Shown here one piece after another: positions 41,678-54,488 of a stretch of DNA of 64,000 nucleotides (position 1 is the stretch's first letter; each line of letters starts with the position of its first letter). Made by a program: the position numbers and the translations under genes. The stretch is from assembly GCA_964515475.1 (NCBI GenBank), contig CAZEVD010000001.1, forward strand, positions 156,125-220,124, read 5' to 3'. A model generated the notes under the pieces. That model did not search any database and was not told where the DNA came from. It saw only the letters and a list, made by a program, of their open reading frames with translations. The stretch is from an uncultured Eubacteriales bacterium (lineage in GTDB: Bacteria > Bacillota > Clostridia > TANB77 > UBA1234).

Positions 41678-42619
41678 ATGAATATTGTATTTATGGGAAC
41701 ACCAGATTTTGCGGTGGAATCTTTGAAAAGATTATATGAAAATGGGCATAATATAATGGCTGTAATTTCTCAGCCTGATAGAAAATCAGGAAGAGGTATG
41801 AATGTGGTTCCGACTCCTGTTAAGGAATATGCTGAAAGTAAAGGTTTAAAAGTTTATCAACCTGAACGAATTAGAAAAGATAAAGAATTAATTGAAAAAA
41901 TAAAAGATATGAAGCCAGATGTAATTGTTGTTGTTGCGTTTGGTCAAATCCTTCCAAAAGAAATTTTGGATATACCAAAGTACGGAGCAATAAATGTACA
42001 TGGTTCATTGCTTCCAAAATATAGAGGCGCAGCTCCTATACAATGGTCAATAATTAATGGTGAAACGGTTACTGGTATAACAACAATGTATATGGATGTT
42101 GGTATGGATACTGGCGATATGTTGGAAAAATTTGAAGTGGAAATTGAATATGATGATACGTATGGAACATTATATGAAAAATTAAAAGTTGCTGGAGGCA
42201 AAGCAATTGTTTCAACTTTAGATAAAATTGTAGAGGGTGTGTTGAAGCGTACACAACAAGGTGATGATTTTACAATGGCTCCTATGATAGAAAAAGAGAT
42301 GGGAGAAATTGATTGGAGTAAAACATCTACAGAAATTAGAAATCTTGTTAGAGGATTAAATCCAATGCCGGGTGCTTTTTCTTATGTAGGAAAAGAAAGA
42401 ATAAAAATTTGGAATACAGAAATCTCAACATTTCATAATGAAGATGCTGAACCAGGAACTATTTTGTTAGATAGTGAAAAGCATGGTCTAGTTATAAAAA
42501 CAGGAGATGGAGCTTTAGAACTTACAGAAATTCAAATGCCAAATCAAAAGAGAATGTCAGCTAAAGATTATTTAAGAGGGCATAAAATTAATTTTGAAAG
42601 ATTAGGAGGTAATTTGTAA
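41678..42619 (+). CDS. fmt: Methionyl-tRNA formyltransferase
   Basis: MNIVFMGTPDFA, HGSLLPKYRGAAPIQ. Confidence 0.9.
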   Translation: MNIVFMGTPDFAVESLKRLYENGHNIMAVISQPDRKSGRGMNVVPTPVKEYAESKGLKVYQPERIRKDKELIEKIKDMKPDVIVVVAFGQILPKEILDIPKYGAINVHGSLLPKYRGAAPIQWSIINGETVTGITTMYMDVGMDTGDMLEKFEVEIEYDDTYGTLYEKLKVAGGKAIVSTLDKIVEGVLKRTQQGDDFTMAPMIEKEMGEIDWSKTSTEIRNLVRGLNPMPGAFSYVGKERIKIWNTEISTFHNEDAEPGTILLDSEKHGLVIKTGDGALELTEIQMPNQKRMSAKDYLRGHKINFERLGGNL

Positions 42620-43086
42620 TGGGTGAAAAGAAAAACAAAGATTTAGAAGTGGTAGAATCAACACAAGATGTAAAAGAAACAGAAGTTAATGGTATTAAAA
42701 TAGCAGAAGATGTTGTTGCTAAAATAGCAGGTATTGCTACATCTGAAGTAAAAGGTGTTTCAAGCATGAATACAGGTTTTGTAGATGGATTGTTTGGAAA
42801 GAAAAACTTTTCAAAAGGTGTAAAAGTACAAGTTAACGATAAAGATGCAACTATTGATCTATTTATAATGGTTGATTATGGTTGCAGAATTCCTGACATA
42901 GCATGGGAAATTCAAAATAGAGTAAAAACATCTGTTGAAAATATGACAGGTCTAAAAGTATTAGAAGTAAATATTCATGTACAAGGTGTTAACATCCCAA
43001 GTTCAGCCAAGGAAGAAAAAGTTGAAGAAAACAAGGACGAAATAAAAGTAGGAAAAGTTGAAGATGTTGTAAATTCAGAAGAATAA
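42619..43086 (+). CDS. Asp23/Gls24-family alkaline shock protein
   Basis: Asp23 family core (KIAGIATSEVKGV). Confidence 0.75.
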   Translation: MGEKKNKDLEVVESTQDVKETEVNGIKIAEDVVAKIAGIATSEVKGVSSMNTGFVDGLFGKKNFSKGVKVQVNDKDATIDLFIMVDYGCRIPDIAWEIQNRVKTSVENMTGLKVLEVNIHVQGVNIPSSAKEEKVEENKDEIKVGKVEDVVNSEE

Positions 43087-43143
43087 TTATAAATGTAATG
43101 CCGAGTTTTCGGCATACATATATGAAGAGAGGATGATTTAATT

Positions 43144-43824
43144 ATGAAAATAATAGACAAGCTAATATCTTTTATATTTGATTTAGTTATAATTGTAATA
43201 GCAAGTACGATTTTGTTAGTTACTTTTGATATAGTGCAATATGAAGTGATAGAAGGTTTATTAACAGGATATTTATTTAATCCTTCTTACGAAGTAATAG
43301 TTGGAGCTGCTGCGGTAATTGTAATTCTTTTAGCTTTAAAAGTTACAGTTTTCACATCTTCTCTTTCTAATAAAACAAAGAAAAACATAATGGTTGATAC
43401 TCCGCATGGTAAAATTCAAATTGCACAATCAACTATTGAGGGAATTGCAAAGAATGTAATAAAAGATTATCCTCAAGTAAAAGATGTACAAGCTGCAATG
43501 ACAAAAGCAAGAAATGGTATCAACATGTATATGGCACTAGTTGTTTATCAAGGTATTAATATAAAAGATACTATAACTAAAGTTCAATATGATGTAAAAA
43601 CTCAAATTGAATCAACAACAAGTGTGCATGTAAATAAGATTGATGTTAAAATCAAAAACGTTTTGAAAATAGATAAAGCTTTGGTTAATCAAGAGAAAAA
43701 AATCAAAGAAGCTAGTATTGAAGAAATAGAAAAGAAAAATGATTTAACAGAAACTTTAAGAAATGAAACTGAAATTACTGCTGTTAATTCTGTAACAGAG
43801 AGTAATAAATCAACAGAAGAATAA
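43144..43824 (+). CDS. amaP: Alkaline shock response membrane anchor protein AmaP-like
   Basis: N-terminal TM, position downstream of asp23, coiled C-terminus. Confidence 0.5.
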   Translation: MKIIDKLISFIFDLVIIVIASTILLVTFDIVQYEVIEGLLTGYLFNPSYEVIVGAAAVIVILLALKVTVFTSSLSNKTKKNIMVDTPHGKIQIAQSTIEGIAKNVIKDYPQVKDVQAAMTKARNGINMYMALVVYQGINIKDTITKVQYDVKTQIESTTSVHVNKIDVKIKNVLKIDKALVNQEKKIKEASIEEIEKKNDLTETLRNETEITAVNSVTESNKSTEE

Positions 43825-43836
43825 AAAGAATGGAGG

Positions 43837-44052
43837 TTGTTTTGTATGTTAGAAAAAGTAGGAAAGTTTATTGAGAAACACGCAGGTTTTATTATAGGTG
43901 CGTTAATAGGTTTATTATTAGTTGTACTAAAATGGACTACATTTATCATTAATGTAATTATAATCGTATTTTTAGGTTATGCAGGTAAATATGTACAAGG
44001 CAACAAAGATGTTGTTAAAGAAAAAATTAAAAATCTAATTGAAAAATGGTAG
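43837..44052 (+). CDS. Small membrane protein (DUF2273-like) of the asp23 locus
   Basis: Two TM, typical locus partner. Confidence 0.4.
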   Translation: MFCMLEKVGKFIEKHAGFIIGALIGLLLVVLKWTTFIINVIIIVFLGYAGKYVQGNKDVVKEKIKNLIEKW

Positions 44053-44061
44053 GAGAAAATT

Positions 44062-44499
44062 ATGAGCAGAAAAATTGCAAGAGAAGTAGCTTTTAAAATA
44101 ATCTTTTCAAATGAATTTGAATTTGAAAAAGATACTCTAAAAGAATTAATTGAAAATATTATATCTGATGTAGAGTTGGTAGAGACTACTAATAAAAATG
44201 ATATTTCTTCAGAAGATAAAAAATATATTGAACAAGTTGTATCAGGAATCGCCGAAAAGAGAGACGAACTTGATGAAAAAATAAAAACATATTTAAAAGG
44301 TTGGACTATGGATAGAATAAGTAAAACAGACTTAGCTATCCTAAGACTTGCTGTATATGAAATGTTATATAGAGAAGATATTCCTTGCAAAGTTTCAATC
44401 AATGAAGCAATTGAACTTGCAAAAGCTTTCTGCGAGGAATCTTCACCTTCATTTATAAACGGTGTTCTTGCCGGAGTAGTTAATTCTTTAGAAAACTAA
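44062..44499 (+). CDS. nusB: Transcription antitermination factor NusB
   Basis: MSRKIAREVAFKIIF, NusB fold motifs. Confidence 0.85.
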   Translation: MSRKIAREVAFKIIFSNEFEFEKDTLKELIENIISDVELVETTNKNDISSEDKKYIEQVVSGIAEKRDELDEKIKTYLKGWTMDRISKTDLAILRLAVYEMLYREDIPCKVSINEAIELAKAFCEESSPSFINGVLAGVVNSLEN

Positions 44500-44528
44500 T
44501 TAATAAATACAAAGGGTGAAAGTATAAC

Positions 44529-45731
44529 GTGGGAGAATTTTTTAGACCAGAGCCGATGACAGTATCGGCTCTTAATCGATATATAAAAAATTTAATAGAT
44601 AATGATGAACTGTTGGGCATGGTTTATATAAAAGGTGAAATATCGAATTTTAAGAAGCATTATTCAGGACATCTTTATTTCACTTTAAAAGATGAATCGT
44701 GCCTTATTAAATGTGTAATGTTTAAAACGTATACACCTAATCTAGATTTTGAACCTAAAGATGGGGATAGTGTTTTGATTTTAGGATCAGTTGCAGTGTA
44801 TGAACGAGACGGAATCTATCAAATATATGTAAAAGGTATGGAGATAGATGGAGTCGGTGCACTTTATGCTGAATATGAAAAATTAAAAGCTAGACTTGCT
44901 GATGAAGGTTTATTTGATGAAGATAAAAAGAAACCAATACCAATGCTTCCTAAATCAATTGGAGTGATCACTTCAAAAACTGGAGCGGTAATAAGAGATA
45001 TAATAAACGTAACAACTCGTAGATTTCCAAATGTAAATATAAAATTATATCCAGCGAGTGTGCAGGGAACAGGAGCATCTGCAACTATTGTAAAAGCGTT
45101 AGAATATTTTAATGAGGAAAAGAATGTAGACGTAATAATTGTTGCACGCGGTGGCGGATCGCTAGAAGATTTATGGCCGTTTAATGAAGAGGCTACAGCA
45201 CGAGCAATATATGCTTCTGAAATTCCTGTAATTTCTGCGGTAGGACATGAAACAGATTTTACGATAGCTGATTTTGTAGCTGATTTAAGAGCGCCAACGC
45301 CTTCTGCAGCCGGAGAACTTGCGGTTCCAGAGATTAATGAAGTTAAATGGAAAATAAATAATTCTCAAAATAAATTAAAAATATTACTTAAACAAAAAGT
45401 AGAGGCGATGAAAGCTCGTTTTGAAAAAATTATGAAATCTAGAATTTTTAAAGACCCGTTTGATATGCTAAGACAGCGTCAAATGACAATATCTAATTTT
45501 GAAAAGCAAATGGCTAATAAAGTAAAATTAAACTTAAAAGATAATCGAATATCACTTATAGAAAAGATTTCAAAATTAGATGCGTTAAGTCCTTTAAAAA
45601 CATTGACAAGAGGATATGCAATAGTAGAAAATAAAGAAAAGAAAGTTGTAACATCTACTAATGATTTAGAATCGGGTGATGTTGTAAAAATTGTTTTACA
45701 AGACGGAAATAAAGAAGCTACTATTATATAG
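44529..45731 (+). CDS. xseA: Exodeoxyribonuclease VII large subunit
   Basis: OB-fold N-term, catalytic core (RGGGSLEDLWPFNEE). Confidence 0.9.
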   Translation: MGEFFRPEPMTVSALNRYIKNLIDNDELLGMVYIKGEISNFKKHYSGHLYFTLKDESCLIKCVMFKTYTPNLDFEPKDGDSVLILGSVAVYERDGIYQIYVKGMEIDGVGALYAEYEKLKARLADEGLFDEDKKKPIPMLPKSIGVITSKTGAVIRDIINVTTRRFPNVNIKLYPASVQGTGASATIVKALEYFNEEKNVDVIIVARGGGSLEDLWPFNEEATARAIYASEIPVISAVGHETDFTIADFVADLRAPTPSAAGELAVPEINEVKWKINNSQNKLKILLKQKVEAMKARFEKIMKSRIFKDPFDMLRQRQMTISNFEKQMANKVKLNLKDNRISLIEKISKLDALSPLKTLTRGYAIVENKEKKVVTSTNDLESGDVVKIVLQDGNKEATII

Positions 45732-45740
45732 GAGGAAATT

Positions 45741-45974
45741 ATGAAAGATATGACTTTTGAAGAAGCAATGACTGAACTTGAAAAAACAGTAAATGAATTA
45801 GAAGTTGAAAAATTAAGTTTAGATGAATCTGTAAAGAAATTTGAAAAAGGAATGGAATTATCTAAACATTGCACAGAACTTTTAGATAAAGCCGAAAAAA
45901 GTATTTCAATACTTATCGAACAATCAAATGGTGAAATGAAAGAAGAAACATTTGAAATCTCTACTGAAGAATAG
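45741..45974 (+). CDS. xseB: Exodeoxyribonuclease VII small subunit
   Basis: FEEAMTELEKTVNELE. Confidence 0.85.
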   Translation: MKDMTFEEAMTELEKTVNELEVEKLSLDESVKKFEKGMELSKHCTELLDKAEKSISILIEQSNGEMKEETFEISTEE

Positions 45975-45995
45975 TTGTAGGAGGAGTACGAATAC

Positions 45996-46433
45996 ATGGT
46001 AAGTATATTAGAAAATATATATTTTTGGACAGCTGCATACTCTTGGCTTATTGCACAAGTAATAAAAGTAATAAATGATTTGATAGTACACAAAAAATTA
46101 AATGTGAGACGTTTATGGGGAAGCGGTGGAATGCCTAGTTCACACGCAGCAACAGTTATGTCTCTTACAACAGTAGTTGGAATTATAAATGGTTGGGATT
46201 CGGCAATATTTGCAGTATCATTTATATTTGCAATAGTTGTAATGTATGATGCGGCCGGAGTAAGAAGAGCGGCTGGAAAACAAGCTAAAGTATTAAATCA
46301 AATGATTGAAGAAAAGGGCGTAAAAATGAAGGAAAGATTAACAGAGTTATTAGGACATACTCCTTTTGAAGTGTTTATGGGTGCTTTTCTAGGAATCGTA
46401 AATGCGTGGTTTGTGTATAATATTTGGGGATAA
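45996..46433 (+). CDS. DUF212 / YuiD-family divergent PAP2-like membrane protein (occupies the position usually held by ispA downstream of xseB)
   Basis: GGMPSSHAATVMSL motif. Confidence 0.6.
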   Translation: MVSILENIYFWTAAYSWLIAQVIKVINDLIVHKKLNVRRLWGSGGMPSSHAATVMSLTTVVGIINGWDSAIFAVSFIFAIVVMYDAAGVRRAAGKQAKVLNQMIEEKGVKMKERLTELLGHTPFEVFMGAFLGIVNAWFVYNIWG

Positions 46434-46454
46434 TATTTTATATATTAGGTATAG

Positions 46455-46491
46455 AAAAAAGCTCAACTTTTAAAGTTGAGCTTTTCGTTTT
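46455..46491. terminator. Bidirectional rho-independent terminator (A6-gctcaactttTAAAgttgagc-T-run)
   Basis: Perfect 9-bp stem flanked by A/T runs. Confidence 0.75.
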
Positions 46492-46499
46492 GGATCTTT

Positions 46500-46655
46500 A
46501 TTTATAAGAACACTCGCTATCATCTTCATGAGGGTCATCAAAAGACCAAACTACTCCTACGCCACTGCATGAACCTTTTATGTTCTCTCTTTCAGGATCA
46601 CGATCTGAATCATCCGGTACAAACCAATTACATGTTCCACACATTCTTGCCATAT
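46500..46655 (-). CDS. 51-aa acidic Cys-containing small protein MARMCGTCNWFVPDDSDRDPERENIKGSCSGVGVVWSFDDPHEDDSECSYK
   Basis: Strong RBS aggagga 9 nt upstream of ATG; terminator immediately 3'; the opposite-strand track ORF 46476-46724 lacks an RBS. Confidence 0.4.
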
Positions 46656-46778
46656 TTAATTCCTCCTAAAAAACAAATTAAATCGTTGAAAGAGTCTAAC
46701 TCAATCAACCAATTAAAATTATAGCACAAATTTGACATAAATTCAACGAATTTTGACAGATATTGCTATTTTTTAAGC

Positions 46779-46807
46779 TTGAAATCAAAATTAAAGTCTG
46801 TTAAGAT
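46779..46807 (+). promoter_or_regulatory. Sigma-A-like promoter TTGAAA-17-TAAGAT predicted to drive the downstream structured RNA
   Basis: Hexamers and 17-bp spacer read directly. Confidence 0.4.
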
Positions 46808-46814
46808 ATAAATC

Positions 46815-47412
46815 AATAAGTGGTGTGTTATTCTAGTTTTCATTGTTGATTGCGAGGGTAGGCCTAAAAATCTACTGAAAGAGCATATCGATGAAGTTCT
46901 TTAAGTTTGCTTGCGACGCCCAGTCGTGGGTTCTCTTAGGGAGTAAAGGTTTAAGGGCAAGCCATAACGGCATATGGTAAATGACCCTTCTACCGTGGAG
47001 ACACATACGTCACATTGCGATGACGTTTTGTGATAAACCTGCGAGGCTTCCCACATGAAAAGGGGAAGTACACAGTGTAGCTTTCCTTGAGCGATAAAAA
47101 GCGGATGACAACCTGAAACTTGCATTGCAAAAGAGGATAAACAGTCAAGACGTGAAGTCTGGGAAAACCTCTAGAACATTCTACAAAAGAGATACCTTAG
47201 AGATTGAAGTGTGGACTAAGTGGTAATCTAGGCTCCTATCTGGTGACAGTAGGATCTTATCTTTAAACGGAAACGACTGAGATGGCGACATCTTAGTAGA
47301 TATTAGGGAAACCCTTCTAGACCTAAGCCGCAAAATTTATCTAAGGTATTACCACTATTTACTTTAAAATTAGAAGCCCCAAAATCTTTGATTTTAGAGT
47401 TTCTTTTTTTTA
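46815..47412 (+). ncRNA. ole: Candidate OLE (ornate large extremophilic) RNA, ~600 nt
   Basis: ORF-free, GC-elevated ~600-nt region between xseB/DUF212 and a 193-aa 4-TM protein, which is the canonical ole-oapA context. Predicted promoter upstream and T-rich terminator at ~47381-47410. No primary-sequence verification was possible here. Confidence 0.45.
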
Positions 47413-47465
47413 TAAAAGTTAAGTTTGACTAGAAAATTATTAAATTTAGAATGGAGTAGTTTAAA

Positions 47466-48047
47466 GTGAGTAAAAATCCAAAAGGATCAGATAAAAAGAA
47501 TGATAAAAAGCAATCTGCACATAAATGGTGGTTGGTAAAAATATTTATAGTAACATTTATCTTATCTATTGTGTTCAACTATTTGTCTTCTACATTAGTT
47601 GAAAATTTAAATGTTATAGTTTCTTCATTAATACTTATATTAGTTATATTAACAGGTGTTATTTCAGACCTTATTGCAACTGCTGTTACAGCTGCAGAAG
47701 AAGCTCCTTTCCACGCGAAAGCTGCAGATAAAAAAAGAGGAGCTAAACAATCTGTAATGGTAATTAAGTCGGCAGACAAAGTTTCAAACGTCTGTGGTGA
47801 CGTTATAGGTGATATTTGTGGTGTATTAAGTGGTGCTACAAGTGCTCTTATTGCAATAGAACTTTCAGAACAAATATTTAATGGTGGATATATTACAGTT
47901 ATTACAATGTTGGTTACAGCTCTTGTAACTGCATGTACTGTACTTGGAAAAGGTATTGGTAAACACGTGGGCATTGAAAAAGCAAACGAGATTGTTAATA
48001 TATTAGGTGTTATAATTTCATATGTTCCTTTTGTAGGGAAAAAATAG
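47466..48047 (+). CDS. 193-aa small polytopic membrane protein, candidate OapA (OLE-associated protein A)
   Basis: Lys-rich N-terminus, ~4 TM, position immediately 3' of candidate OLE RNA. Confidence 0.4.
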   Translation: MSKNPKGSDKKNDKKQSAHKWWLVKIFIVTFILSIVFNYLSSTLVENLNVIVSSLILILVILTGVISDLIATAVTAAEEAPFHAKAADKKRGAKQSVMVIKSADKVSNVCGDVIGDICGVLSGATSALIAIELSEQIFNGGYITVITMLVTALVTACTVLGKGIGKHVGIEKANEIVNILGVIISYVPFVGKK

Positions 48048-48787
48048 TGAATAATTTACCTTCTTTGGAAAATACTAAATTTGAGTATTTCCTAAGGAAG
48101 GTGATTTTTTTGTTTAAAAATAATCTTAAATATTTAGTGATTGTATTTGCTGCATTTTATATTTATTTAGGAATTTTGTATATAACGAATTCGAATAATC
48201 AAATAGAAGAAACTATTTCACGTTATGGTTCAACAGGAAGTGAAGTTACGCAGATACAGACTAAATTAAAAAGATGGGGATATTATAATGGCCCAATTGA
48301 TGGCATATATGGGACAAAAACATATAATGCCGTAAAATATTTTCAAAGAAAAAATGGATTAACAGTTGATGGAATTGCTGGAAAAAATACGTTAGCTGCA
48401 ATGGGGATTTATAATACCACTAATAGTGGAACAAATACGGCTAATGTAGAGCTTTTAGCAAGAATTATTAACGGCGAAGCAAGAGGCGAACCGTACAAAG
48501 GGATGGTTGCTGTGGGAGCTGTAGTTTTAAACCGTGTAGATGATCCAAAGTTTCCTAGCACAATAGCAGGAGTTATTTATCAGTCTGGCGCTTTTGATGC
48601 AGTGTCAGATGGGCAGATTAATATGACTCCATCAGCAAGTGCGTATAATGCTGCTCGTGACGCTTTAAACGGCTGGGATCCATCTGGCGGTGCAATATAT
48701 TATTTTAATCCAGCAACAGCGACGAATAAATGGATTTGGTCAAGACCTTTAACTGTTGTAATTGGTAATCATAGATTTTGCAAATAA
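48047..48787 (+). CDS. sleB: Spore cortex-lytic enzyme SleB (PG-binding domain + SleB/Hydrolase_2 domain)
   Basis: PG_binding_1 repeat (GSEVTQIQTKLKRWGYYNGPIDGIYG..) and LARIINGEARGEPYKGMVAVGAVVLNRV core. Confidence 0.8.
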   Translation: MNNLPSLENTKFEYFLRKVIFLFKNNLKYLVIVFAAFYIYLGILYITNSNNQIEETISRYGSTGSEVTQIQTKLKRWGYYNGPIDGIYGTKTYNAVKYFQRKNGLTVDGIAGKNTLAAMGIYNTTNSGTNTANVELLARIINGEARGEPYKGMVAVGAVVLNRVDDPKFPSTIAGVIYQSGAFDAVSDGQINMTPSASAYNAARDALNGWDPSGGAIYYFNPATATNKWIWSRPLTVVIGNHRFCK

Positions 48788-48890
48788 ATGTCTCGAAGGG
48801 GACAGTCCTAAAAAGGACATCAATTCAAATTAAAGCTTACTAATTTGATTAATGTTGATGTCCTTTTTAGGACTGTCCCCTTCGAGACAT
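48788..48890. repeat. Palindromic intergenic element copy 2 with ~37-nt perfect arms (aatgtctcgaaggggacagtcctaaaaaggacatcaa / ttgatgtcctttttaggactgtccccttcgagacatt) and an internally palindromic loop
   Basis: Same core as 444-538; starts 1 nt after sleB stop. Confidence 0.75.
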
Positions 48891-48961
48891 TTATTTAATG
48901 TGAATTTTTTTGTTCTAAAAAATTTTTCCCTGCATATATATAGAACTAAGGAGTGAAGTAT

Positions 48962-49870
48962 ATGTATTTGAAAATATATTCTGAAATATTATCTTTCTTT
49001 CCTGAAAAGATAAAAAAACATTTTGATAATCTTTCAAATGAAATTTGGACAAGCGTCAAAGAAATACGAATAAGGATAGATAGACCAATCCTTATTGAAT
49101 GTTTTGATAAAGAATATTTTTTAGATTATCTGGTAAAGCAAGAAGACATTTTAAGACTTATAGAAAATTTTTCGGAAAATTCAATGTATTCATTTCAAAA
49201 TGAAATTAATGCAGGGTTTATTACAATTAGAGGTGGACATAGAGTTGGGATTTCAGGGACAAGCGTTTTCGAAAATAATCAGATAAAAAATATTAAATAC
49301 ATATCTAGTTTAAATATAAGAGTAGCGCGAGAAATTAAATTTTGCAGTGAAGAACTTATGAAAAAAATATGTATGGAAGATTTTGAAAATACAATTATTA
49401 TTTCTCCACCAGGGTGTGGAAAAACTACGTTATTAAGAGATGCAATTAGAATTTTAAGTAATGGTAATGAAAATATAAAAGGTAAAAATATTGGTTTGGT
49501 AGATGAACGTTCGGAAATTGCTGCTATTTATAAAGGTGTTCCGCAAAATGATATAGGTATAAGAACCGATGTTATGAATAATTGTAAAAAAGAAATTGGT
49601 ATGCGAATGCTTATTAGAAGCATGGGACCTCAAATAATTGCTACAGACGAGATTGGAAATAATGATGATGTGAGCGCAATTATGGATGCGTGTAATTCTG
49701 GAATTAAATTATTACTTACAAGTCACGGAAATGATATAGATGATATACCAGATGAGCTTATAAAGAAACAAATTTTTAGTAATGTTGTGATTTTAGATAA
49801 TAATGGAAAACCAGGTGAAATTAAAAAAATCTATAGATTGGAGAGTAAAGAATATGTGGCTGTTTCTTAA
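48962..49870 (+). CDS. spoIIIAA: Stage III sporulation protein AA (ATPase)
   Basis: Walker A SPPGCGKTT; ATG at 48962 preferred, with RBS aaggag at 48946-48951. Confidence 0.85.
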   Translation: MYLKIYSEILSFFPEKIKKHFDNLSNEIWTSVKEIRIRIDRPILIECFDKEYFLDYLVKQEDILRLIENFSENSMYSFQNEINAGFITIRGGHRVGISGTSVFENNQIKNIKYISSLNIRVAREIKFCSEELMKKICMEDFENTIIISPPGCGKTTLLRDAIRILSNGNENIKGKNIGLVDERSEIAAIYKGVPQNDIGIRTDVMNNCKKEIGMRMLIRSMGPQIIATDEIGNNDDVSAIMDACNSGIKLLLTSHGNDIDDIPDELIKKQIFSNVVILDNNGKPGEIKKIYRLESKEYVAVS

Positions 49871-50381
49871 ATTTATTTTGATATTATTAGTGTTTGTTAT
49901 ATCTACGCTTGTTGGATATGCGCTTGCAGGAAGGTACAAAATGAGAGTTGCAGAAATCAATGATTTTATGAAAGCTTTAGAAATGTTAGAAACTAAAATT
50001 AAGTATACATATGATTCTTTAGGAACATCTTTTTTATATATTGCGGATAACTTAAAAACTAAAGTATATAGAATATTTTATATCACTGCTGAACTAATAA
50101 ATGCAAATAAAAATTTATCTGCGGGAGATTGTTATAAACAGGTTGTGGAAGATGAAAAAATATTTTTATCGCTTAATAAAGATGACATAGAAATAATAAA
50201 AGAATTAGGTGTTTCTTTAGGACAAGTTGATATTGAAGGACAATTAAAGACCATTAAGTTGGTACATACAGGATTGAAAAAACAATTGGAGTATGCGCAA
50301 GAAGAAAATAGTAAGAATTTTAAATTGTATAGAAATATGGGTGTCTTATCAGGTTTAGTAATTATGATAATTCTTTTATAG
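49854..50381 (+). CDS. spoIIIAB: Stage III sporulation protein AB
   Basis: Operon position, N-terminal TM, size. Confidence 0.75.
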   Translation: MWLFLKFILILLVFVISTLVGYALAGRYKMRVAEINDFMKALEMLETKIKYTYDSLGTSFLYIADNLKTKVYRIFYITAELINANKNLSAGDCYKQVVEDEKIFLSLNKDDIEIIKELGVSLGQVDIEGQLKTIKLVHTGLKKQLEYAQEENSKNFKLYRNMGVLSGLVIMIILL

Positions 50382-50394
50382 ATAGGAGATTTAT

Positions 50395-50589
50395 ATGGAT
50401 GTTGAATTGTTATTTAAAATTGCAGCAATTGGAATATTAGTTGCAGTGCTTCATCAAGTGTTAGTGCGTGCAGGTAGAGAAGATCAAGCAATGATGACTA
50501 CATTAACAGGTCTTGTAATTGTTTTAGCAATGGTGGTTCAGCAAATAAGTGAATTATTTAATACAGTAAAAACATTGTTTAATTTATAA
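50395..50589 (+). CDS. spoIIIAC: Stage III sporulation protein AC
   Basis: 64-aa two-TM protein, conserved AVLHQVLVRAGREDQA. Confidence 0.85.
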   Translation: MDVELLFKIAAIGILVAVLHQVLVRAGREDQAMMTTLTGLVIVLAMVVQQISELFNTVKTLFNL

Positions 50590-50602
50590 AAGGAGAATTT
50601 TT

Positions 50603-50986
50603 ATGAATGTTATTCAAATTGTTTCGATAGCTTTAATTTCCACTTTTATAATTATTTTATTTAAACAGTATAGGCCTGAATTTGCAATTTTAATTTCACT
50701 ACTTACTTGCGCTTTTGTTTTAGTTTTTTCATTTGAAAAGATAAAATTAATCATTTCGATGATTGAAAATCTTATAAATAATATTGATATAAATAAAGAA
50801 TTTTTTGCTATTTTATTAAAAGTAACTGGAATTGCGTACATCATAGAATTTGCATCAAATTTATGTTTGGATGCAGGTGAAAAAGCGGTAGCATCTAAAA
50901 TCGAATTCGCAGGTAAGATTATTATTGTTACTATGGCCATTCCGATAGTTGAAACTTTAATCGAAACAATAACAGAGGTGATTTAG
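50603..50986 (+). CDS. spoIIIAD: Stage III sporulation protein AD
   Basis: 127-aa 4-TM protein in operon position. Confidence 0.8.
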   Translation: MNVIQIVSIALISTFIIILFKQYRPEFAILISLLTCAFVLVFSFEKIKLIISMIENLINNIDINKEFFAILLKVTGIAYIIEFASNLCLDAGEKAVASKIEFAGKIIIVTMAIPIVETLIETITEVI

Positions 50987-52099
50987 TGAAAAAAATTTGT
51001 TTTTTAATTTTTATATTACTTCTGAACATGAATGTTTCATATGCTGTCGATGAAAGTAGTGTTGAAATATTTTTAGAGGAACTAAAAAATTATACAAATA
51101 GTAATTTTCAGCAAATTGAAGATAAAAATATTTTAAAAGAAATTATAAGTGGAGGGATTGTAGAAAAAGAAAAAATAATATCTGGAGTTGGAAATATTTT
51201 TTTTAAAGAAGTAAAAGAAGCCATTTCGTTATTAACCAAAATTTTATTAGTGACGATATTTTGTAGTTTGCTAAAAAATATAGGTCCGCAATCTGAAAAT
51301 AGTGTAAAAGAAATTGCATTTTATATTTGTTATTTAGTTGTTATACGGATTGATTATTGGTTCTTACATAAATATTAGTGATGTTTGTAAAAGTACAATA
51401 ACTAAACTTACAGAATTTATGAATTTACTAATACCACTTGTTTTATCTTTTCTTGTTGCAAATGGAACAATTGTAGCTGCAGGGATGATAAAACCAGTAT
51501 TATTGTTAATGATAAGTTTTATAAATGTTTTGATATCAAAAATACTTTTGCCAGTTACATTTCTATCATTGATTATGAGTGTTATAGGTAATATATCAGA
51601 AAATATTAAGTTTTCAAAACTTCCAGAAGTGATACAAAAAATTTCTTTAACGTTTTTAAAGTGTACATTAGCAATTTTTATAGGGATACTTTCAATAGAA
51701 GGTACGCTTGCTGCTAATGTTGATGGTTTTACTTCGAAAACAACAAAAGCAATTGTCAGTACAACGATACCAGTAGTGGGCAAAGCATTAAGTGATGCTG
51801 CAGATAGTGTAATTGGTGCAACTTCGATAACTAAAAATGCAATAGGTGTTTTGGGTATTATAGTTATTTTTATTATTGCTATTGAACCGTTATTAAAATT
51901 ATTTGTTTTAATGATTACTTTTGATATAGCTGGTGGTCTAATGGAGCCTATTGCTGATAAAAGAATTTCGAATTGTATGAGTTTAACTAGTAATTCGATA
52001 AAAATGTTATTAGCGTTATTAGCTGTTATAAGTATAATGTTTATTTTAGCAATTTCAATGATGATAAAGATTAGTAATTTTTCATTAATGTATTCTTAA
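50986..52099 (+). pseudogene. spoIIIAE: Stage III sporulation protein AE interrupted by +1 frameshift near 51338-51350 (ORFs 50986-51378 and 51338-52099)
   Basis: Combined length ~370 aa equals SpoIIIAE; signal peptide + soluble domain + 7 TM; two frames overlap by 40 nt. Confidence 0.65.
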
Positions 52100-52663
52100 G
52101 TGGAGATAGATATGATTATAGAAAGCTTAACAAATTATACATATTTACTTATTATAACTGTATTTATAACTAACATTATTCAAATGGTTTCACCAGAAGG
52201 AAAAATGAAAAAATATATTTTATTTATTTCTTCTTTAATTGTAACAATAATCTTACTAGAACCAATTTTGAAATTTATTAATAAAGATATTAATATGGAA
52301 AATATTTTTAGTACAAATCTAGAAGAATATAAATTACGTTTTGAAGAAAATGAAACTAACTTAGATTCAGAAATATTAGCAACGTATAAGGAAAATATAA
52401 AAACAGATATAATAAAGCGACTAGAAGATTTAGATTATACCGTGCACTCAGTTTCGTGTGAATATGATGAACTAACGTTAGAACCTAAATATATAAGATT
52501 AGAAATATCATCGTACGACGGAGAAATACGACCGGTTAAGATTGAGATATCAAATACCAATAGTAATGAAATTCCTCAGATTGAAAAATGGAAAATAGAA
52601 ACGTTATTAAAAGATACGTATGGATTCAAGGAGGTGGAAATCAGATCGTGGAAAAGTTATTAG
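52100..52663 (+). CDS. spoIIIAF: Stage III sporulation protein AF
   Basis: Operon position, N-terminal TMs. Confidence 0.7.
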   Translation: MEIDMIIESLTNYTYLLIITVFITNIIQMVSPEGKMKKYILFISSLIVTIILLEPILKFINKDINMENIFSTNLEEYKLRFEENETNLDSEILATYKENIKTDIIKRLEDLDYTVHSVSCEYDELTLEPKYIRLEISSYDGEIRPVKIEISNTNSNEIPQIEKWKIETLLKDTYGFKEVEIRSWKSY

Positions 52664-53205
52664 AAAAATTTATGAATAAGAAAACAGTAGAAAATTTAAT
52701 TGTTTTTTTGATTCTTATTATCATAACGATTATTGCATTGAATAGTATGTATAAAGATGAAGAAGAATTTACTCAAACCAGTAATACTATGATAATAGAC
52801 AGTCAAAATAAAACTGGATATAAAACTGAGTTTGAGATAAGACTTGAAAATGTTTTATCTAAAATAAATGGTGTAGGTGATGTAGATGTAATGGTTACGC
52901 ACGAAAATGATGTTAAGAAGATTCCAATGACAGATACGAAAAATATAACAACAATAACAAGTGAAAAAGATACAGCAGGAGGAGAAAGGAAAACTGAAGA
53001 GATAAATAGTGAAACAACAATTGTGTATGAAACAAATGGAAATAATAAAATTCCTGTAATTCAAGAATATACTATACCACAAATAGCGGGAGTTATAGTT
53101 GTTGCAGAAGGTGGAGATGATGCTTTTGTAAAAGAAAAATTAATTTCTGCTGTTGAATCGGTTACAGGAATTTCAATACATAAAATTCAAGTCTTTGGTA
53201 AATAA
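52646..53205 (+). CDS. spoIIIAG: Stage III sporulation protein AG (GTG start after RBS aaggagg)
   Basis: Single N-terminal TM + C-terminal ring-forming domain, operon position. Confidence 0.7.
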
Positions 53206-53208
53206 TTT

Positions 53209-53808
53209 TTGGAGGTTAACATGAATTTTAGAGTAAGTGTAATAAAGAAAAATCAAATATTAACTTGGGGACTTATAATAGTTTTGGTTATTGCAGGATA
53301 TTTAAATTATACAAATGATCCTCAACGACTATATAGTGTTGAAGTTGCGGATATGTATGAACCCGAGCTTGGAGATGCTGTTTTTGTTGATAGTAATAAT
53401 TTAGTTACAAATGTCGATGAATTAATAACAGATGTGAAAAATGAAAATTTTGTAAAAACATCGGATGAATTTTTTAGCGAAAATAGGATTAATAGGAATA
53501 AAATATATTCTGAACAATTAGAAAGATATGAAGAGGTCCTTAAAGAGGCTAGTTCAAGTGAAAGTAGTCTTAAGTTTGCACAAGAAGAAATTATAAGAAT
53601 TAACAATGAAAGGAATGCAATTACAATTGCGGAAAATCTTATAAAATTAAAAGGTATAGAAGAAGTTGTTATAATGGTTAATGGAGCGAGTGTGAATGTA
53701 ATTGTTTTGGAAGATGAGCTAACAGAGGCAAAGATTGCTCAAATACAAAATATTGTTCAAAATGAGTTAGGTGTAGAAATTTCAAATATCCATATAAACG
53801 AGTTATAA
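53209..53808 (+). CDS. spoIIIAH: Stage III sporulation protein AH
   Basis: N-terminal TM, YscJ/FliF-like C-terminal domain, operon position. Confidence 0.7.
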   Translation: MEVNMNFRVSVIKKNQILTWGLIIVLVIAGYLNYTNDPQRLYSVEVADMYEPELGDAVFVDSNNLVTNVDELITDVKNENFVKTSDEFFSENRINRNKIYSEQLERYEEVLKEASSSESSLKFAQEEIIRINNERNAITIAENLIKLKGIEEVVIMVNGASVNVIVLEDELTEAKIAQIQNIVQNELGVEISNIHINEL

Positions 53809-53930
53809 TATGCAAATGTAAAAATATGGAATGTAAAAGGCGCATTATGTAAAAAAAGTGTTGATAAATGGCGGGAAATGATGTAAAATCATACGGTAGA
53901 AAAGAACGCAATAGAGAGGAGTTTTTAATA

Positions 53931-54488
53931 ATGATAAGCGCAGGAGATTTTAGAAATGGTGTAACATTTGAAATGGATAGTCAAGTGTTCAAAATAGTTG
54001 AATTCCAACATGTTAAACCAGGTAAAGGTGCGGCTTTCGTAAGAACAAAATTAAAAAATGTAATGACTGGAGCTGTATTAGAAAGAACTTTTAACCCTAC
54101 AGAAAAAGTTCAAGAAGCACAAATTGATAGAAAAGAAATGCAATATTTATATAATGATGGTGATATGTACTATTTCATGGATAATGAAACTTATGAACAA
54201 TTACCATTAACAGCAGATGATTTAGGAGATACTTTAAATTATCTTGTTGATAATATGAATGTTAAAGTAATGTCTTATAAAGGAAAAGTATTTGGTGTTG
54301 AAGCTCCATTATTCGTAGAGCTTGAAATCACATATACAGAACCTGGTTTCAAAGGTGATACATCTACAGGTGCTACAAAACCAGCTACAACACAAACAGG
54401 ATATGTATTAAATGTACCTTTATTTGTTGATATTGGAGATAGAATCCGTATCGATACACGTACTGGTGAATATATGGAAAGGGTATAG
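53931..54488 (+). CDS. efp: Elongation factor P (start 53931; the track ORF from 53868 is an extension)
   Basis: [30 protein letters not shown]. Confidence 0.9.

Follow-up and report, generated by a model that had tools for sequence, protein, structure and literature searches.

We are highly confident that positions 46804-47371 of the 64,000-nucleotide (nt) stretch of clostridial DNA analysed here (contig CAZEVD010000001.1; hereafter the window) encode an OLE (ornate, large, extremophilic) RNA, and that positions 47466-48047 encode its membrane partner OapA, both on the plus strand. The OLE RNA family has been known since 2006. The window copy is an ordinary addition to it, which a routine Rfam scan detects trivially; more than 2,800 representatives had been reported before (PMC11332333). 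The appropriate annotation labels are ole for 46804-47371 and oapA for 47466-48047.

Identification of the RNA and its association with oapA

An earlier note on this DNA, made from the letters alone, had proposed an OLE candidate in this region, to be checked against Rfam. The check bears this out: the OLE covariance model (RF01071) matches the plus strand at 46804-47371 with 398.7 bits (E = 1.1e-114) against a gathering threshold of 50. The match spans model positions 1-616 of 616 without truncation and defines an RNA extent of 568 nt, with a structured core that runs from the 5' to the 3' strand of helix P1. Over the whole window only OLE and two transfer RNAs score above threshold, and a scan of 44000-50000 at E <= 1 finds no family other than OLE at 46804-47371. 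The window RNA is identical to the consensus at 210 of the 245 highly conserved (upper-case) nucleotides (86%), the criterion for the class being about 25% highly conserved, and it can form canonical pairs at 123 of the 137 consensus pairs that map onto it. The region also behaves as non-coding DNA in the way the earlier note had described. Between 46725 and 47465 there is no credible open reading frame (ORF), as only minus-strand ORFs of 44-74 amino acids (aa) occur inside the RNA, none with a Pfam match, and the GC content is raised (41-46% between 46800 and 47300, with flanks of 23-34%).

For comparison we used the best 80 loci from a genome search for homologues of the 193-aa protein encoded at 47466-48047. 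When these 80 oapA-homologue loci were searched by nhmmer, with the window RNA as the sole query, OLE was detected directly upstream and in the same orientation in 77. Of the three that remain, two come without upstream DNA and one (L009) has a partial OLE; OLE lies directly 5' of the oapA homologue in 78 of 78 informative loci. An Rfam check of ten sampled loci returned a full-length OLE in every case (248-543 bits). As a separate observation, the copy at L009:5691-5847 consists of the OLE 3' domain only (model 436-595, 100 bits), 5' of an intact oapA-like gene, and is either a natural truncation or an assembly artefact.

For the structure we aligned 76 full-length OLE copies and tested the Rfam helices together with P1, P2, P3/P3.1 and P15, which were added from the published architecture (24 helices in all). 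In this alignment pairing is found in 86.9% of the cells; sliding the 3' partners by 1-3 columns lowers this to 39-48%. Changes on both sides of the pair (compensatory) are seen in 128 of 165 pairs. None of 500 shuffles reached the observed values. Helices P1-P15 are supported by these compensatory changes across the 76 homologues. Summarizing, the RNA is a member of the OLE family, it has the conserved fold, and its pairing with an OapA-type gene is obligatory.

The host fits the range of OLE (anaerobic or extremophilic Bacillota): the closest loci come from metagenome-assembled genomes of gut and rumen Clostridia, and the window carries sleB and spoIIIAA/AB. The best OapA identity among the best 80 loci is 74-75%, and the species appears to be unrepresented among them. 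An identical locus is present in two public sequencing-run assemblies (SRR14307658 and SRR14307663).

Structure of the RNA

All elements described in this section are on the plus strand. The core comprises P1 (46819-46824 pairing with 47351-47356), P2 (46831-46836 with 47171-47176) and P3/P3.1 (46838-46852 with 47142-47157), as well as the P4/P4a hairpin (46857-46876) with its loop CCUAAAAAUC. The nucleotides of this loop are invariant across 76 of 76 aligned OLEs. In the cryo-electron microscopy (cryo-EM) structure of the Clostridium acetobutylicum RNA, loop L4 is the site of the A-A dimer contact known as bridge B1 (PMC12286853).

The P5/P6 region with its flanking joining regions (46887-47002) contains P5/P5.1 with loop GCCCA (46897-46943) and P6 with loop GGCAU (46948-46994). 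The joining regions within it, J4a/5 AUCGAUGAAGU, J5/6 GGGAGUAAAGG and J6/7 CCGUGGAGAC, agree with the Rfam consensus and are kept in the alignment of 76 OLEs, where helices 6-8 are 90-100% paired and covarying and the sequences of loops L4, L5 and L6 are conserved. In published OLEs the joining regions around P5 supply the kink-turn (k-turn) recognised by OapC, or YbxF (PMC9723947, PMC12286853). By analogy, J4a/5, J5/6 and J6/7 of the window RNA would supply the predicted OapC k-turn.

The main departures from the full-length architecture are found in P7 and P9. The P7 hairpin is shortened (47002-47032): its length is 31 nt, with 11 nt deleted relative to the Rfam model, and the P7 of the full-length OLEs in L034, L051 and L079 reaches 60-100 nt. 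P8 (47039-47075) is not reduced and has 13 pairs. Only the base of P9 is left (47084-47137), with its conserved internal loop GGAU...CUGAAAC kept, whereas 5 nt, ACAAC, stand in the window RNA where the Rfam model has a distal arm of about 50 nt. The published OLE dimer has three bridges, B1 (L4 A-A), B2 (L5/L6/L7) and B3 (L9.3), the last of which is an intermolecular kissing loop formed by the palindromic GGCC of L9.3 in the C. acetobutylicum cryo-EM dimer (PMC12286853). Across the alignment, GGCC at the P9 arm occurs in 55 of 76 OLEs, whereas 18 of 76 combine a P9 arm shorter than 40 nt with the lack of GGCC, including the window, L001-L007 and L076. Given these 18 relatives without it, the L9.3 GGCC is a feature of full-length OLEs and no requirement of the family. 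Two other copies have extra insertions in the distal P9 arm: about 100 nt in L073 (alignment columns ~487-600), itself an inverted repeat, and about 55 nt in L038 (columns ~400-455), which suggests that P9 is a tolerated insertion site.

The 3' domain (47191-47350) contains the four-way junction P12.2/P13/P14/P15 (47227-47321). Within the junction lie P13 (47234-47254; UCCUA-U-CUG GUGA CAGUAGGA, with a GUGA tetraloop and a single bulged U), P14.1 with a GCGA tetraloop (47276-47297) and P15 (GGGAAACCC). Helices 20-24 are 85-99% paired and covarying in the alignment. Binding of OapB requires a GNRA loop and a one-nucleotide bulge in P13 beside P12.2 (PMC7936274); the window P13 has both, with GUGA tetraloop and bulged U intact.

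The membrane partner

The oapA gene (47466-48047, plus strand) opens with a GTG start 95 nt 3' of the end of the Rfam OLE match and on the same strand. Its product had been described in the earlier note as an OapA-like, Lys-rich protein of 193 aa with about four transmembrane (TM) segments, and the description holds: the protein has four hydrophobic TM segments and 19 Lys, with a Lys-rich N-terminus, and its AlphaFold2 model shows long helices. At residues 112-116 it carries DVIGD, an instance of the DxxxD motif that is invariant in 25 diverse homologues. DxxxD is a hallmark of OapA and is missing from true CNNM domains (PMC11332333). The model adopts a CNNM-like transmembrane fold without CBS or CorC domains, and its top match in the Protein Data Bank (PDB) is 7m1u, which is also the match published for the OapA of Halalkalibacterium halodurans (PMC11332333). 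In Pfam the CNNM score stays below threshold (18.6 bits against a cut-off of 28.4). As NCBIfam and PDB sequence searches with this protein yielded nothing useful, the identification as OapA is made by motif, fold and synteny. Compared with the genes in the oapA position of L051 and L034, the identity is 43% and 39%, respectively.

Predicted expression signals of ole and oapA

A predicted sigma-A promoter of ole is located at 46779-46807 on the plus strand: a -35 box TTGAAA (46779-46784), a 17-nt spacer and a TG-extended -10 box TAAGAT (46802-46807). This promoter had been put forward in the earlier note. It is recovered by a scan and backed by conservation, although the consensus match taken alone does no better than chance. 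In 8 close relatives the TTG of the -35 box is invariant and the -10 box stands at a fixed distance from P1, and most of the 76 loci have a TGnTATAAT box just 5' of P1, whatever the upstream genes. Because of this conservation in relatives, and despite the chance-level scan, we accept 46779-46807 as likely to be the own promoter of ole, with a predicted start near 46814, about 5 nt before P1.

At the other end, a weak intrinsic-terminator-like hairpin followed by UUUCUUUUUUUU (eight U) occupies 47372-47411 on the plus strand (dG -9.7 kcal/mol, z -2.8) and could set the 3' end of OLE. A transcript of about 600 nt, from about 46814 to 47411, is plausible. The T-rich 3' end of the earlier note is in this way recognisable as a hairpin with a U-run, and its figure of about 595 nt stands as a prediction only. 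The element belongs to the spacer between P1 and oapA, in which the window has an insertion of about 75 nt that is missing from 7 close relatives; there, P1 and the oapA ribosome-binding site are within about 30 nt of each other. Further along the plus strand, the window shows a promoter-like TTGACT-16-TAGAAT (47425-47452; 10/12 matches in the scan, window-specific) and the predicted oapA ribosome-binding site GGAG (47453-47456), 9 nt before the GTG start. The window-specific insertion could partly uncouple the expression of OLE and oapA.

Upstream of ole, a terminator scan detects a bidirectional intrinsic terminator with a stem of 13 base pairs (bp) and T-runs on both strands (46457-46485). 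It is followed by a minus-strand gene of 51 aa (46498-46653) with an AGGAGG ribosome-binding site and a Cys-rich, acidic product (MARMCGTCNWF...GSCSG...VW...ECSYK). The promoter of this small gene, a TG-extended TTGAAT-17-TATAAT at 46746-46718, is divergent from OLE, and the gene is also called by a public gene caller. The terminator would close the xse-DUF212 operon on the plus strand and the 51-aa gene on the minus strand, insulating OLE. This qualifies the earlier statement that OLE comes after xseA-xseB: the gene order is right, but OLE does not simply follow, as the terminator and the small gene intervene. It also makes read-through from xse, as in H. halodurans, unlikely here.

A 49-aa homologue of the 51-aa protein, with 37% identity and the same Cys pattern, occurs at the same position in L001 (5075-5224, minus strand), and L007 has no space for such a gene between DUF212 and OLE. 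A tblastn search at E <= 1e-4, which is weak for so short a protein, gave no match in loci other than L001. The protein has no Pfam or NCBIfam family and a word-index search with it returned near-identical matches only; an exhaustive phmmer search added one homologue at 90% and one spurious repeat protein, and among 1.8 billion representatives a single further cluster of homologues came up. An 82-aa ORF on the plus strand (46476-46724) was rejected as a shadow of this gene, since it lacks a ribosome-binding site, matches no family and has the wrong GC skew. The minus-strand gene is preferred because of its AGGAGG, the homologue in L001, the right sign of the GC skew and the public gene call.

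Alternative interpretations

Several observations weigh against the interpretation of the locus as an OLE RNA acting with OapA. Of the consensus pairs 14 are non-canonical in the window copy, and the L9.3 GGCC kissing loop, one of the three published dimer bridges, is missing, which makes dimerisation less certain than for full-length OLE. The promoter consensus scan is at chance level (17 sites found against 14.5 expected, the ole match being 9/12), and the promoter, transcription start and 3' end of ole are predictions. The mechanistic part draws on homology and published hypotheses. A complete OLE ribonucleoprotein further calls for a genome with oapB (a KOW/SBB protein) and oapC (ybxF) and with mpfA absent; no oapB or oapC candidates were recognised when the first 60 residues of 79 window ORFs were inspected by eye, without a family scan. 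One alternative is that the element is a decaying, non-functional relic (a pseudogene) that is retained by recent ancestry only. The score of 398.7 bits is indeed lower than the 542-543 bits of the full-length copies in L034 and L051, the copy has no distal P9 and a shortened P7, the non-canonical pairs would fit decay, and L009 with its lone 3' domain shows that truncated OLEs exist elsewhere. Nonetheless, the same trimmed architecture recurs in at least eight species-level relatives (OapA 62-75% identical), whose remaining helices continue to show compensatory changes, and forms with a short P9 are a described natural variant (PMC11332333). Together with the retention of 86% of the highly conserved nucleotides, the conserved promoter and an intact oapA with the invariant DxxxD, this leaves the relic very improbable. 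Least probable of all is that the region is another large structured RNA (a group II intron fragment, riboswitch or small RNA) or a short coding region. The several minus-strand ORFs of 44-74 aa might hint at the latter, but the four of them inside OLE were rejected as coding for want of a Pfam match, no other Rfam family appears even at E <= 1, and it is the OLE-specific structure that covaries; the Rfam scan, the Pfam search on the ORFs and the covariation together refute this explanation.

An alternative of another kind concerns expression, namely that OLE is processed from a long polycistronic transcript starting 5' of nusB/xseA. This is how H. halodurans transcribes its cluster, as one polycistronic RNA (PMC12265935), and the order nusB-xseA-xseB-...-OLE-oapA is kept in the window, where the promoter match of just 9/12 belongs to a class of chance frequency. 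Here, however, the 13-bp-stem terminator at 46457-46485 separates DUF212 from OLE, and the 51-aa gene, convergent to the operon and equipped with its own ribosome-binding site and promoter, intervenes. Moreover, the -35/-10 pair keeps its fixed distance to P1 in relatives even when the upstream genes are entirely different (L011). We regard processing from a polycistron as unlikely, and favour an OLE with a promoter of its own.

Gene context

The genes preceding ole on the plus strand were assigned with Pfam: nusB (44062-44499), xseA (44529-45731), xseB (45741-45974) and a DUF212/divergent-PAP2 gene (PF02681, E = 7.5e-52; 45996-46433). Downstream of oapA the window has sleB (TIGR02869, 299.6 bits), then spoIIIAA, spoIIIAB and efp. 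The order nusB-xseA-xseB-DUF212 is also found in L001-L003, L007 and L076. Two other loci illustrate how this arrangement relates to that with ispA: L034 reads xseB-ispA-OLE-oapA, while L051 (OLE 543 bits) reads nusB-xseA-xseB-ispA-DUF212-OLE-oapA-dxs-tlyA-nadK. From their orders xseB-ispA-OLE and xseB-ispA-DUF212-OLE it can be seen that DUF212 does hold the ispA slot in the window, as the earlier note had stated. In the window and in L001-L003/L007, ispA is lost from the locus and sleB, then spoIIIAA, follow oapA instead of dxs (region 42619-54488).

A literature search returned no papers on a link between DUF212 and OLE. Statistical links of OLE with isoprenoid or cell-envelope genes and with sporulation have been published, and a locus that has DUF212 and sleB-spoIIIA where others have ispA and dxs agrees with them. 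With its trimmed P9, DUF212 instead of ispA and sleB-spoIIIA next to it, the window OLE varies in minor ways that accord with published trends.

Between the stop codon of sleB and spoIIIAA we also observed an inverted repeat (48782-48896) with 53-nt arms that are 91% complementary and a 9-nt spacer. It is unique in the window and missing from all fetched loci; the public contig L081 ends just short of it. It might act as a strong terminator in both directions or represent a small mobile element. Weak, sub-threshold Rfam matches to mir-992, SpF43 and mir-2010 at 48789-48891 were dismissed as false positives from this long inverted repeat.

Proposed mode of action

Based on its predicted signals, the OLE RNA would have a sigma-A promoter to itself, with transcription beginning about 5 nt before P1, and would be insulated from the xseA-xseB-DUF212 operon by the terminator and the divergent small gene. 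The transcript may end at the weak hairpin with its U-run, or read through into oapA. By analogy with H. halodurans and C. acetobutylicum, the RNA is expected to fold into two domains and could dimerise via the L4 A-A bridge and the L5/L6/L7 contacts. Since the P9 arm with bridge B3 is missing, any dimer must rely on the other two bridges. Dimers of OapA, a CNNM-like putative divalent-cation transporter, would bind OLE and tether the RNA at the membrane, with OapB presumably binding the P13 GUGA tetraloop with its bulged U and P12.2, and OapC the k-turn by P5. OapA has been proposed as a divalent-cation transporter related to MpfA (PMC12265935, PMC11332333). The particle might help the cell under stress (alcohol, cold, excess Mg2+ and poor carbon sources), and probably would do so at least in part by controlling the passage of metal ions through OapA.

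A compact OLE of 568 nt that has the determinants for OapB and OapC and lacks the P9.3 kissing loop could serve to test, in a natural setting, whether bridge B3 is dispensable. A far-reaching view would be that OLE has been rewired in this gut-Clostridia clade: the P9 bridge lost with the OapB site kept, OLE transcribed independently, with a terminator-like element, specific to the window, in front of oapA, ispA replaced by DUF212 (a putative lipid-phosphate phosphatase), and sleB/spoIIIA as flanks. The minimal OLE would then work either without dimerising or as a dimer held by two bridges, and the pairing of OLE with ispA, then DUF212, would reflect a real link to polyprenyl-phosphate and cell-envelope lipid metabolism in sporulation. 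We give this extended proposal little chance of being right.

Relation to known systems

Compared with the full-length OLEs of H. halodurans and C. acetobutylicum, the window RNA has all named helices P1-P15 and shares the joining regions, the A-rich L4, loops L5 and L6, the P13 GUGA tetraloop with its bulged U and the P14.1 GCGA tetraloop. As in the clusters of full-length OLEs, oapA is directly downstream and the neighbourhood is that of nusB-xseA-xseB. The differences are the shortened P7 and the deletion of distal P9, including the L9.3 GGCC. In comparison to the canonical cluster (L051), the window locus is without ispA, has DUF212 in its place and carries sleB and the spoIIIA operon instead of dxs-tlyA-nadK. 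Also unlike canonical OLE, ole is provided with its own predicted promoter, upstream insulation and a terminator-like element before oapA. MpfA, CorB and CorC, the Mg2+ transporters with CNNM domains, are distant relatives of OapA, and the window protein matches Pfam CNNM below threshold only.

Another close form that has been described is OLE 'variant 1', which has shortened P7-P9, often lacks the OapB site and is common in the TANB77 gut clade (Fernando & Breaker 2024, PMC11332333). The window RNA has the short P7 and P9 in common with this variant, as well as a host lineage among uncultured gut and rumen Clostridia. It differs by the OapB site kept at the tip of P13, by a P8 that is not reduced (13 pairs) and by a host that carries the sporulation genes sleB, spoIIIAA and spoIIIAB. 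Overall, the window OLE is an intermediate form.

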